The notes: generated by a model from the letters alone, not told the origin. Numbered from the stretch's first letter, positions 54,338-64,000 are shown. The stretch is DNA of 64,000 bases from Dictyostelium discoideum (GCA_000004695.1 CM000154.2:4032001-4096000); one strand, 5' to 3'. A program made the numbers and translations.

Positions 54338-57300
54338 ATGTTTGGTTATAACAGTAATGAGGAAGATTGTGGTGATGTTGCAATTATTGGTATAGGATTG
54401 AGATTTTCAAGTGGTGATTTAAATGAATCAATTTCAAAACCAAATCAATTATTTAATTCATTATTAGATGGATTTAATGGAATTGTTAATACTTCCGAAA
54501 GATGGTCTGATAATTATTATTTAAATGGTGAAATTAATTCAGTTTCTGCAGGTTTATTACCTCTTGATGAATGGAAAAGATTTGATCCAATTTTCTTTGG
54601 AATTAATCCAAGTTATGATAATGTTGTTACAATTGATCCTCAACAAAGATTATTATTAAAATGTAAGATATTATTTCAAGTTTTTCCAAATTAAAAAAAA
54701 AAAATCTTTTTTTTTTATACTTAATAATGAAGGAATCATATAATAACAACCTTTTCCCGCCACTTTTTTTTTTTTTTTTTTTTTTTTTTTTTTTTTTTTC
54801 CACTTGCAAATTTTTTTTTTTTTTTTTTTTAATCACTTTTATTATTTTTTTATAATTTTTACCACACAGGCGTATGGGAAGCATTAGAAGATAGTGGTAT
54901 TGATCCAATTAGTTTACGTGGTACAAATACAAGTACATTTATTGGTTGTAGTACTACTGATTATTGCAGTCTTCAAAAATCGCCGTTTGAAACTCAAAAT
55001 AATATTTTTGGTTCTTCAAATCATTCAGTTGCAAACAGAATCGGTTATTGCTTTGATTTTAGGTATGATTTGAATTTATTAAAAAAAAAAATAGAATTAA
55101 TTATAATTTTAATTGTTATCATTATCATTACTAATAATACCTTTTATATTTAAATATAAAGAGGTGAGAATTTTACAATTGATTCAGCTTGCTCCAGTTC
55201 TCTAAATGCAATTAATTGTGGATACAATTCGATCAAATCAAATAAATCAAATGTATCAGTTGTTGGTGGTGTTAATTTTATATTAGGTATGTAATGTGAT
55301 TATATTAGCATAATAATTATAATAATAATAATAATAATAATAATAATAATAATAATAATAATAATAATAATAATAATAATAATAATAATAATAATAATAA
55401 TAATAATAATAATAATAATAATAATAATAAAAAAGTAAATTAATTAATAATCAATATATAATATTTTTATATTTTTAGACCCAAATATTTCAAAATCATT
55501 CACACAATTAAATATTTTAAGTCCAACTGGTAAATGTCATTCTTTTTCATCGGATGCTGATGGTTACGTTCGTTCAGAAGGTGTTGGAATAGTCATATTA
55601 AAGAAACTAAAAGATGCAATTAAAGATTCAAATAATATCTATTGTGTAATCAAAGGTTCAAGTTCAAATATCGATGGAAACTATGATAAATTAAACTTTT
55701 ATTCACCATCAAAATCATCTCAATATGAAAATATGAAATTAGCAATCAAATCAACCAATGGTCAAATCAATGAATCTGATATTGATTATTGTGAAGCTCA
55801 TGGTACTGGTACTCCAACTGGTGATCCAATTGAATTAGAAGGTATTTCAAGACTTTTCAGTCATAATAATAATAATAACAATAACAATAAACAAGTTTTA
55901 GTTGGCTCAATTAAATCAAACATTGGACATACTGAAGGTAAATTAATTAATTAAATTTTCTTAATCATAATCAATAATCAATAATTAATTACTAACATTA
56001 CTCATTTATTTTTAATTATAATATCATAATTAATCAGCATGTTCTGGAGTTGCATCATTAATTAAATGTTGTTTAATGTTTAAGAATAAATTATTTCTTC
56101 AAAATATTAACTTCAAAGAACCAAATCCATTAATAAATTTCAAAGAATGGGCATTAAAAGTCGTAACTGAACCAATTAAGTTCAATGAAAATAAAACCAC
56201 CGTTATGTTAATTAATAATTTTGGTGTTACTGGTAAATATTAATATATCATTTTATAATTTATGTGTATATGACAAAAAAAATTAATAATTTTATTATTA
56301 TTTTCTCCAGGTTCAAATGTTTGTTTAATATTATCAGAATTTAAAGAAAAACGTTATAATAATAATGAATACAGTAGTGATAATGCTTGTGAACAAATAG
56401 ACATTGATAGTAAAGTAATTGAAAAAAAGAAATTTTTAATACCACTCTCAAGTAATTCATCAACATCATTAGATAATTATAAATCAATAATAGTCAATAA
56501 TAATTATGATGATTCGAATTCATCAACAAGAAGTTTTCAAGAATTTGTTTATAATCAAATCAAATTCAAATCAACATCATTAATTCAAAAATCAGTTATA
56601 ATCGCAAGTGATTGGAATGAATTTCAAGATGATGATAATCAAATAAAGTTGAAAAATAGTGAGGGTTTAATTTCAAATATTACTGTTGAAAAAAAGAAAT
56701 CACCACTCACAGTAATGGTATTTTGTGGTCAAAGTTCACAATATAATAAAATGGCATTATCGCTATACGAGAATGAACCAATATTCAAAGAATCAGTGAA
56801 TAGATTCGATAAAGAGTTATTCAAGTATTATGGTTATTCAGTTTTAGATAGATTAAGATCAGTCAGTGATAAAGATGAAATATCAATCCATCTACCAATT
56901 TTAGCACAACCAGCAAATATAATGATTCAAATATCACTCTATGAACTATATAAACATTGGGGTGTTTCAGCAGATATCATCGTTGGTCATTCTCTTGGTG
57001 AAATGTCATCATCCTATTCATCAGGTATGATCGATTTTGAAACATTGTGCTACTTAATCTATCATAGATCACTAGCTCAAAATAGAACCACAGGTACAGG
57101 TAGAATGTTATCAGTCAATATTAGTTATGATGAATTTATTGAGAAATACCAATCCAAAAACAATAAATACGAAACACTTGAAATTGCATGTTACAATTCA
57201 CCAACATCAATCGTTATTGCAGGTAAAGAAGATCTATTAAATGAAATTTCAAAAGAATTTAAATCAAATGATATCTTTTGTGCAATGTTAGGATCGTTAT

Positions 57301-60300
57301 CATCATTTCATACATCAAGTCAATTTATGATAAAAGATGAAGTATGCTCATTGGTATTTAAATCAAAACTACCATCAGTACCAGTATTTTCAACAGTCAC
57401 AACTAATTTATTCAATGATCAAACACCATATAATGCAAATTATGTATGGGAGAATATTTATCAACCAGTATCATTCACACAGACCATCAGCAATCTTTAC
57501 AAACATATCGAGTCTAATGATATGGGTAATGAAATTACATTCATTGAAGTTGCACCTCATCCAACATTACAATTTTACTTGAATCAAATGAAATCAATTC
57601 AATCAAGTTACTTTAATCATGGTAAAAGCGTTACAATCTATTCACCATTACACAAAAAGAAGAATGATTATAATGAATTTTTAAAAACAATCTCTTTATT
57701 ATATGTAAATAATAATTTTAATATTAATTTTAAATCACAATTAACCAACATCAATAATAATAAAATCAAGAGCAACAGCAACAGTAATAGCAACAAAAAT
57801 AATAACAAAATAATCCAATTCAATGATAATAACTTGCCTCTTTATCAATGGGATGATAATGAATACTTTAAATTAAATCCATTTCATGAAAAGATTACAA
57901 GTGAAGGTCCACCCATTCAAAACCTTGGTAATAGTATTGATTCAGCATGTTCAACCTATCAAACATTTATTGATATTAAGAAACCACCATTTCAATGGTT
58001 AAAAGGTCATCAAGTCAGTGATAAATTTTACTATCCTGGAATGGGTTATGTTCAAAATCTATTATCAATTTATCCAAATCAAGATATAACAATTAGCTCA
58101 TTAGAATTTAAATCACCATTAGTATTAACAGAAGGTAATAATCAATGTTTAGAAACTACAGTTTCTCTCCTCTCAAAGAATGAATTCAACGTTAAAAGTC
58201 ATTACAAAGATCAAAAAACAAATCAATGGATATTATCATCACTTGGTAATTTTAGTTTATTCAAACATAACAGTATCAATAGTGAAAAATTAATTAACAT
58301 TCAAGCATTAAAAGATAAATGTAATTTTACAACAATATCAAAACAAGAATTTTATGAAACAATTAAAATCAAAACAAATTTAACATATAAAGGTTTATTC
58401 CAAGGTGTAAAAGAATGTTCAATTGGTAATAATTGTTCACTCGCTGTAGTATCATTAAATGAAATCAATAATCATACAATTAGTAATCATAGTACTATTG
58501 GCCGTTCATTGTTTAATGCTGCAACTTTAGATTCTTGTTTACATGGTTCATTAATTGTAGTTGCACAACCAATTGTACTCGATAGAATTGAAGGTTTCAA
58601 ATTATACTCTTCAAATATTCCATCATCGTCATCGTCGAGCAAAGATGACAATGACTGTGACAGTAATAATAATAATAATAGTAATAATTTTATTAAAGAA
58701 TTATATGTTTACACTGAAGCAAAAGCAAAAACCAATTATCAATCATTCTCAGCATCAGTTAAAATCATACTTCCAAATGGTAGATTATTAATGGAGATCT
58801 CAATGGTGGTTTGTACATCAGTTTCACTTGTAAATCCAAGAAGCAGTATAATTTGTAAACCACCTTCAAATGAAATTTATACACCATGGCTTCAACCAAA
58901 AGATTCAATCATCAACAAACCTCAACAATTCAAACATTTATATAGTGTAGATGAATTTATTGCCAAAGAAGAAGATAATCAAATCATTTCAACTGAACTG
59001 TTATTATCATTATTTTATAAACATATCAACGTTAGATGTCCAACTATAAATTTAGAATCATTAATAACATTAGAATATAATCAATTTAAACAACTATATT
59101 ATAACAACAATGGTTCAGTAAATGAAAATCTTTTCAAATTCGTTTTTGAAATCTTAAAGAGTTATAGTAGTAATAATATTCTTAATCACAATAACAGTGA
59201 AAACAACAACAATGAAAACAGTAATAATGAATCACTATATTATTTTGAACAATTATATATTAAAACAACTAAAATAATAGCAAAACAACTATTCCCATTA
59301 AAAGATGATGATTCATTTACAGATACACCACAATCATTATTCAAGAATGTATATTTAGATGAATTTTATAAAAATTTTAGAGCAGTTCAACCATTAAATA
59401 ACTTATTAAGTGAAATTATAATTGAAGCACTCAAACCAATTTTAAATCAACCAATTGTATTTCGTATATTAGAAGCAGGTGGTGGTACTGGTAGTCTTAG
59501 TTTATTAATTTTAGAAAAGATTTGTAAACTTTTAAATGCAAATCCAAACTCAGTCATTGATATCGAATTCACATGGAGTGATGTTTCATCGTCTTTTTTT
59601 ACAGAGATTAAAGAGAAGTTTTCACCATTTACAGCTCACAAAAATTTCAATATTATCCACCGTGTATTAGATTTAGAGAAACCATTATTTGATCAAGACT
59701 TAAAACCATCCTATTATGATCTCGTTGTTATATCAAATGTAATGCATGTCGTTAAGAAACTTAAACCAACATTGGATGAAATTCATAATATATTAACACC
59801 AAATGGTCAACTGCTATTTATTGAACCACCTTATAAATCAATTTATTATGATTCTATTATGGGTTGTTTTTCACAATGGTGGCCATCACCCGATAGTGAT
59901 ACCGAGTTAAGACCTGATAGAAGTTGTATGAATCAAGAAAAATGGATTAAACTTTTAAATGAAACAAACTATAGAGATACAATTATATCTGGTAATGACA
60001 ATTTAATATTTTTAATTCAAACAAGAAAACCATCAATTAATGAAATCATTTCAAAACAATCATCAGATTCATCATTGGATCAATTTAATTCTTTCAATAA
60101 AATCATTTTATTTGGTAATAATAATAATAATGGTTGTAGCCTTCAAAATTCAATATCATCAAATCAAGAATTAAAAAGTAAAATCATTAATATTAATAAT
60201 TTTAATGAATTTCAAACATGGATTACAAATAATTATGATAATAGTGATGGTTTTGGCAATAGTAAAACATTAATAATATTTTTAAAGTCAATTGAACCAA

Positions 60301-63425: not shown

Positions 63426-63633
63426 TTTGGATGATTCACCATTGGAATATTTTTTGGCAATAATAAATTTAATTTTAATGTTCGCAAGATTTAAAAGATA
63501 ATTGTATTTAAATTAAAATTTTTTTTTTTTTTTTTTTTTTTTTTTTTTTTTTTTTTTTTTTTTTTTTTTTTTTTTTTATTATAAATTAATTTTTTTTTTT
63601 TCAAATTATAATTTAACAATATTACAATATAAA

Positions 63634-64000
63634 ATGGAAAAATATGATATTTACTATAACAGTAACGAGGAATATTACGGTGATGTTGCAGTTATTGGCA
63701 TAGGTTTGAGATTTCCAAGTGGTGATTTAAATGAATCAATTTCAAAACCAAATCAATTATTTAATTCATTATTAAATGGATTAAATGGAATTGTTACTAC
63801 TTCTGAAAGATGGTCTGATAATTATTATTTAAATGGTGAAATTAATTCAGTTTCCGCTGGTTTATTACCTCTTGATGAATGGAAACGATTTGATCCAATA
63901 TTCTTTGGAATTAATCCAAGTTATGATAATGTTGTTACAATTGATCCTCAACAAAGATTATTATTAAAATGTAAGATATTCCAATTAAATCTACCCAAAA
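63634..64000 (+). CDS. Second type I polyketide synthase gene, showing the KS N-terminus. It runs off the 3' end of the window.
   Basis: The product reads [113 protein letters not shown] followed by GTAAGA. This is about 95 % nucleotide identity with exon 1 of the upstream PKS (54338..54662), including the intron donor. Confidence 0.8.

Follow-up and report, generated by a model that had tools for sequence, protein, structure and literature searches.

The locus examined here raises the question of how a large polyketide synthase (PKS) gene came to be followed, on the same strand and at a distance of a few hundred base pairs, by a second gene whose first exon is nearly the same as its own. The two genes lie at the end of a 64,000-nucleotide stretch of Dictyostelium discoideum DNA (GCA_000004695.1 CM000154.2:4032001-4096000; the whole of this stretch is hereafter called the window). 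We consider it very probable that they are pks27, which is complete, and pks28, of which the window holds the first exon, that is, adjacent same-strand genes on chromosome 5 of strain AX4 which belong to the family of about 40 fatty acid synthase (FAS)-like, dimeric, iterative type I PKSs and which arose through tandem duplication of the whole gene.

Identity and structure of the gene pair

The upstream gene, pks27 (DDB_G0290467), spans 54338..63068 on the plus strand, in a locus that is very A+T-rich (G+C 21-27%) and has short introns. According to the splice model and its translation, it consists of six exons (54338-54662, 54870-55062, 55162-55286, 55479-55937, 56038-56232 and 56311-63068) separated by five introns, all of the GT..AG type; the coding sequence (CDS) of 8055 nt contains a single, terminal stop codon and specifies a product of 2684 aa. 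The stop codon (63066-63068) is followed by an A+T-rich spacer of 565 bp (63069..63633) and, at 63634, by the ATG of pks28 (DDB_G0290469), at exactly the distance given in the original prediction. Exon 1 of pks28 (63634..63970, plus strand) comprises 112 codons plus 1 nt (337 nt) and has an intact open reading frame (ORF), an ATG and a splice donor at 63971. The window ends at position 64000, 30 nt into the first intron (63971..64000, plus strand), so that pks28 is seen as exon 1 only.

The names were assigned from three lines of evidence. The ORF at 47741-48955, located 5.4 kb upstream of pks27, translates to the exact sequence of DDB_G0290459 of D. discoideum AX4. Furthermore, an AX4-type chromosome 5 assembly (L003) aligns with positions 37705-59003 of the window at 99.56% identity, with 14 gap openings and 7 mismatches, and a gene called in it at the same start as pks27 likewise has a product of 2684 aa. 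Table S6 of the D. purpureum genome paper gives 2684 aa for DDB_G0290467 and 2690 aa for DDB_G0290469, and the gene list of that paper names them pks27 and pks28, respectively (PMC3188802). The length of the product, its position and the neighbouring DDB_G0290459 therefore identify the upstream gene as pks27 and the downstream exon as exon 1 of pks28. The two are annotated genes of nearly the same length and, given the published lengths, are devoid of a reductase domain.

The PKS repertoire of these amoebae has grown by lineage-specific expansion (PMC3188802), and chromosomally adjacent, highly homologous synthases are a documented feature of the 40-member D. discoideum PKS family (PMC12828403). 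Thus, pks27 and pks28 are already known as a catalogued, published tandem pair of a well-known, expanded family, and the present analysis is of little importance beyond confirmation, the tandem lineage-specific expansion and the frequent absence of offloading domains having both been published. The only mildly new points are a substitution in the enoylreductase that is specific to pks27, a shift of its start codon, the structural polymorphism that the array shows from one lineage to another and, in the spacer, an inverted repeat that lacks an explanation. The locus could nevertheless illustrate, on a small scale, how a young tandem array loses reductase domains and changes in copy number.

Domain composition and catalytic motifs of pks27

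Domains were called with Pfam using the cut-offs of the models, and catalytic motifs were read from an alignment with 14 relatives. In the spliced protein, Pfam recovers a ketosynthase (KS; N- and C-terminal halves and KAsynt_C_assoc), an acyltransferase (AT), a weak dehydratase (DH), a C-methyltransferase (cMT), an enoylreductase (ER), a ketoreductase (KR) and an acyl carrier protein (ACP), in this order and all above cut-off except the DH. The search bears out the original prediction of a complete reducing type I PKS with KS-AT-DH-cMT-ER-KR-ACP order and no release domain. The accompanying claim that every catalytic signature is present holds for the KS triad, the AT, the S-adenosylmethionine (SAM) site, the KR and the DSL of the ACP, but not for the DH and ER motifs, both of which deviate from the expected form.

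The KS (aa 13-393; 54374..56114, exons 1-5; this and all further domains are on the plus strand) matches PF00109 with 203.9 bits and PF02801 with 103 bits. Its catalytic Cys-His-His triad, with the cysteine in DSACSSSL (aa 180-187) and the histidines in CEAHGTGT and NIGHTEA, aligns with that of the 14 relatives. The AT (aa 568-892; 56715..57689; PF00698, 134.9 bits) contains GHSLGE at aa 658, as seen in the alignment. The DH region (aa 993-1193; 57990..58592) contains a histidine motif at aa 999 and the aspartate motif LDSCLHG near aa 1172, and its Pfam scores remain below the cut-offs (22.0 versus 27 bits for PKS_DH_N and 18.8 versus 23.7 bits for PS-DH). The histidine motif reads HxxxDxxxxP rather than HxxxGxxxxP. 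The glycine-to-aspartate change is common to the D. discoideum chromosome 5 clade, whereas the relatives from D. purpureum retain the glycine; the histidine, the proline and the D..H motif (LDSCLHG) are conserved among the relatives.

The cMT (aa 1475-1650; 59436..59963) is recognized by PF08242 (Methyltransf_12, 47.3 bits) and PF13489 (31 bits), and its SAM motif, LEAGGGTG at aa 1486, is conserved in the family alignment. The MDR-type ER (aa 1952-2272; 60867..61829; PF08240 (ADH_N), 28.1 bits; PF13602 (ADH_zinc_N_2), 43.4 bits) carries the NADPH-binding motif HSAASGIG, in which a glycine is replaced by Ser2091 (61284-61286). This replacement is unique to pks27 when compared with the 14 relatives: the orthologue from strain ACTFIW, pks30, pks31 and the D. 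purpureum relatives all have HSA(A/T)GG(I/V)G. The linker ahead of the ER contains a poly-serine tract encoded by an in-frame (AGT/AGC)n repeat (60533-60632). In the KR (aa 2313-2496; 61950..62501; PF08659, 81.4 bits), TGQTGII is found family-wide and the conserved tyrosine is present in QQCCYISAC. The ACP (aa 2584-2668; 62763..63017), with its serine in YGMDSL (aa 2618-2623), matches PF23297 (ACP_SdgA_C, 'HR-PKS SdgA C-terminal ACP') with 103.9 bits, and the ORF ends 16 codons past this domain.

By homology, the AT of pks27 would load malonyl units onto the ACP and the KS would extend the chain repeatedly, with the cMT, KR, DH and ER processing each round to a programmed degree, so as to yield a reduced and possibly C-methylated chain. 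That the single module is used iteratively is suggested by the architecture and by the description of the family (PMC12828403).

Origin and age of the duplication

Aligned without gaps from the donor backwards, the first exons of pks27 and pks28 agree in 302 of 325 positions, and in 300 of 316 (94.9%) from the shared TATAAC (codon 8 of pks28) onwards. This similarity is well beyond chance, as a BLAST comparison of pks28 exon 1 with the pks27 copy in the L003 assembly gives E = 1.8e-146. The identity of about 95% that the original prediction reported is thereby reproduced, and so is its extension into the splice donor: GTAAGATATT, at 54663-54672 in pks27, is the same in pks28. Among the 16 differences, eight fall in synonymous codon pairs and eight in seven non-synonymous codon pairs, and all are located between 54356 and 54592, within the 5'-most 246 nt of the shared stretch. 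The two genes are identical from 70 nt before the end of the exon to 10 nt into the intron; the next 20 intron nucleotides in the window are unrelated.

The 5' ends of the two CDSs differ as well. The ancestral start codon, AAATGGAAAAATAT..., is shared by pks28 and both ACTFIW copies but has been lost from pks27 (region 54320-54346), the ORF of which begins with a new ATG at 54338. Because of this shift, the N-terminus of pks27 is four codons shorter, and the four additional codons of pks28 cover most of the difference between 2690 and 2684 aa.

Adjacent position, shared strand and similarity in exon 1 all point to tandem duplication, and a duplication of the whole gene rather than of the exon fits both the near-equal length of the two products and the comparison with a second strain. 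At the syntenic locus of ACTFIW (L001), a divergent strain assigned to 'D. discoideum', the flanks are 88-93% identical to the window and there are three PKS copies (c1, c2 and c3). The first, c1, is full length. Compared with pks27 in 300-nt windows, c1 and c2 show 91-98% identity between about 55440 and 62937, with lower values only in the intron-rich 5' kilobase. The third copy is visible over 2.7 kb, of which 2.2 kb were available for comparison; its identity to AX4 pks27 amounts to about 91-97% over exons 2-6a and to 81-97% over introns 2-5. The identity of 95% up to the donor would most likely reflect the age of the duplication, at 8 synonymous differences per 105 codons, with nothing special about exon 1.

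The extra ACTFIW copy, c2, is located between the counterparts of pks27 and pks28 (L001 18995-25970); it lacks exons 1-3 and has an internal deletion of 0.67 kb, leaving an intact KS-less ORF of 2101 aa. The annotated ACTFIW protein P0001 (2792 aa) looks like a fusion of c1 with exon 4 of c2, because its C-terminus is a KS fragment.

How old the duplication is can be judged from exon 1, for which four copies are available. Every pair among pks27, pks28, c1 and c3 is 94.9-95.7% identical, forming a star-like pattern in which 21 of the 26 variable sites are singletons. Two of the informative sites group pks27 with pks28 and c1 with c3, two group pks27 with c3 and pks28 with c1, and none supports positional orthology, i.e. 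pks27 with c1 and pks28 with c3. The split between pks27 and pks28 is therefore either approximately as old as that between the AX4 and ACTFIW lineages or has been blurred by gene conversion. The original prediction of a recent head-to-tail duplication is thus upheld as regards a same-strand tandem paralogue, whereas 'recent' applies only in a relative sense: the duplication is recent compared to the 84-86% identity to pks30 and pks31, yet it is not a fresh event.

Gene conversion is also part of the alternative that fares best, namely, concerted evolution of the array through unequal crossing-over and conversion, such that the divergence of 5% understates the age of the duplication. This scenario is compatible with whole-gene duplication and has a real, albeit minority, chance of being correct. 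The star-like exon 1, with its singletons and its lack of sites supporting positional orthology, would be expected under such exchange, as would the variation in copy number between lineages, exemplified by the additional 5'-truncated ACTFIW copy, and the shifts in between-copy identity from one segment to the next (between c1 and c3 the value is 99.2% in exon 3, as against 93.3% in exon 2). However, the informative sites number only four, a duplication close to the time of the lineage split explains the star pattern equally well, and AX4 pks28 is visible for exon 1 only. Judging by the copy-number difference and the segment-wise shifts in the closest copies, ongoing unequal exchange appears plausible.

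It is conceivable, though rather doubtful, that pks27 and pks28 of AX4 are in addition diverging functionally within an array that is still being reshuffled. Under this scenario, the loss of the ancestral start codon and the copy-specific glycine-to-serine change in the ER of pks27 would be marks of divergence, and unequal crossing-over would yield new architectures in other lineages, such as the KS-less 2101-aa ORF of ACTFIW. If the substitution abolishes enoyl reduction, the product of pks27 would be less reduced (polyene-type) than that of pks28.

Still less probable is gene conversion confined to exon 1, whereby pks27 and pks28 would be older paralogues in which only the 5' exon was recently homogenized and near-identity stops at the donor. 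The borders of the similar segment are indeed abrupt, 10 nt into intron 1 on one side and about 9 nt past the pks27 ATG on the other, and all 16 differences are clustered in the 5' part, with the last 80 nt identical. However, intron 1 is poorly conserved (72-81% between pks27 and the ACTFIW copies) even between copies that are otherwise 91-98% identical, and its divergence is uninformative for this reason. Neither the lengths of the two products (2690 and 2684 aa) nor the behaviour of c3, which resembles pks28 at about 95% in exon 1 and remains about 91-97% identical to pks27 in exons 2-6a, agrees with a similarity limited to the first exon. Finally, although the window shows exon 1 alone and another strain has truncated PKS copies at the syntenic locus, it is scarcely credible that the downstream gene is only a pseudogene or 5' fragment, with exon 1 stranded by rearrangement, given that DDB_G0290469 is catalogued as pks28 with 2690 aa (PMC3188802), that the exon has an intact ORF, ATG and donor, and that pks28 is transcribed, with its transcript level changing significantly in fruiting bodies of a phosphopantetheinyl-transferase (PPTase) mutant (PMC12625978).

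Whole-gene tandem duplication of an iterative reducing PKS thus accounts best for the pair, but several points weigh against it or limit it. The names pks27 and pks28 rest on position, matching length and one exact neighbour protein; the exact AX4 proteins are missing from the searchable collection, although DDB_G0290459, pks30 and pks31 are present in it. With the complete pks27 model as the query, a protein search recovered neither AX4 pks27 nor pks28, the top match being the 91% identical orthologue from ACTFIW, and exact look-up of the model in the collection gave no match. Similarly, the 113-aa peptide of pks28 exon 1 matched three short proteins only, and the 664-aa N-terminus of the third ACTFIW copy, used in the same way, did not have that copy's own gene among its matches. 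Because AX4 pks28 continues past the end of the window, similarity of the pair over the full length relies on the protein length given in the literature and on the comparison with ACTFIW, a different strain. With the DH scoring below the Pfam cut-offs and the ER glycine changed to serine, full reducing activity of pks27 is not assured.

Loss of the terminal reductase in the chromosome 5 clade

The duplication that gave rise to pks27 and pks28 would have taken place within a clade of chromosome 5 genes (pks27-34, 38 and 39). In the published list these ten genes (nos. 29-38 of Table S6) all have neighbouring chromosome 5 gene identifiers; seven of them encode proteins of 3075-3133 aa, and the three short ones are pks27, pks28 and pks31 (PMC3188802). 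The C-terminal thioester reductase, which is present in most members of the clade, appears to have been lost from pks27 and pks28 and, separately, from pks31.

The closest AX4 paralogues of pks27 are pks31 (DDB_G0290703; 2623 aa, 78% amino acid identity), which has no reductase, and pks30 (DDB_G0290701; 3075 aa), which has a C-terminal thioester reductase of the NAD_binding_4/epimerase type. They form a head-to-tail pair of their own (L002 10001-18340 and 19694-28340, respectively) and resemble pks27 and pks28 in clade, domain order, exon layout and head-to-tail arrangement, with the reductase missing from pks31 as well. The differences are that pks30 retains this domain, whereas both pks27 and pks28 are without it, and that pks30 and pks31 have a longer N-terminal extension ahead of the KS. 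The exons of pks30 and pks31 are 94-96% identical over the whole shared length and the introns 87-91%, yet the reductase is found in pks30 only. The domain must therefore have been lost or gained very recently in this pair, independently of pks27 and pks28. Going by the sequences compared, reductase loss in the chromosome 5 clade is recent and seems to have occurred more than once.

A reductase-less relative from D. purpureum, P0015 (2535 aa), has directly after the ACP the tail motif KMSNKTKQLLKSIGSYDEK, which is terminal in reductase-bearing relatives. This arrangement suggests a clean internal deletion of the reductase domain, a route different from the early stop in pks27. A pattern in which only the last copy of an array keeps the reductase, which would predict this domain in pks28, was considered and rejected, as pks28 is 2690 aa long.

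Chain release and the closest characterized synthases

A Pfam search of the spliced pks27 protein detected no thioesterase, reductase or type III PKS domain, and a tblastn search with the ACP-linker-reductase tail of pks30 matched only the ACP part, up to 63002, leaving no reductase remnant after the pks27 stop. The absence of a release domain, as stated in the original prediction, is thus confirmed but is not a special feature: among the 40 PKSs of D. discoideum, 21 carry an offloading domain downstream of the ACP, which is a chalcone synthase in two cases and a thioester reductase in the others, and 19 lack one (PMC12828403). pks27 falls into the latter subclass, with neither a NAD_binding_4/epimerase-type reductase nor a type III PKS after the ACP.

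Release of the chain without a built-in domain could proceed by hydrolysis or through a separate enzyme, as for the 19 family members, including Pks16, and hydrolysis or transfer by a separate enzyme is most likely the route taken in pks27. We found no hydrolase, acyltransferase or P450 that could be a candidate for release in trans in the 20 kb ahead of pks27, judging from ten large ORFs on its upstream side, of which five lie within 12 kb of the gene and several have no Pfam match; by contrast, the pks29-32 cluster does include a P450. The products of only three D. discoideum PKSs are known (PMC12625978), and the work on dictyodene is silent on chain release.

Several fungal highly reducing (HR) PKSs depend on separate release enzymes. 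Among the fungal HR-PKSs, LovB (PDB 7cpx; 330 bits against pks27) shares the iterative KS-AT-DH-cMT-ER-KR-ACP logic, but its ER is inactive and its C-terminal domain is a condensation domain, whereas pks27 belongs to a separate, amoebozoan lineage-specific expansion, with no partner enzyme evident nearby. The top match of pks27 among solved structures (1413 bits) is Pks16 (PDB 9nju), the principal fatty acid synthase of D. discoideum, which is likewise a dimeric FAS-like KS-AT-DH-MT-ER-KR-ACP protein with no C-terminal offloading domain (PMC12828403). It differs in that its methyltransferase is described as inactive, whereas the SAM motif of pks27 is intact, and its product is a fatty acid. 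After Pks16, the structure matches comprise bacterial and animal megasynthases as well as LovB. The animal type I FAS (PDB 2vz8 and 8vf7) has the same overall megasynthase architecture, its KS region matching pks27 with about 350 bits, but ends in a thioesterase, which pks27 lacks.

Spacer and low-complexity sequences

A tblastn search for further PKS fragments in the window gave none, and neither tRNA genes nor Rfam families were found in it. Upstream of 63501, the spacer between pks27 and pks28 shows no homology to the ACTFIW spacer. It contains an inverted repeat (63197-63256 and 63366-63425) with arms of 60 nt, 88% complementary, which are separated by 109 nt and include a 41-bp core that pairs perfectly. 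This core has no further occurrence in the window and none in the three fetched loci, of which only the ACTFIW spacer spans the equivalent region; the repeat may be a foldback or MITE-like insertion.

Closer to the pks28 start, the spacer includes a pure poly(T) run of 59 nt (63519-63577). A similar run of 36 nt is found in intron 1 of pks27 (54764-54799), and intron 3 contains an (ATA)n microsatellite of 51 units (55310-55463). The microsatellite and the poly(T) tracts are low-complexity sequences typical of Dictyostelium, and the 14 gaps in the alignment with the other assembly probably fall in them.

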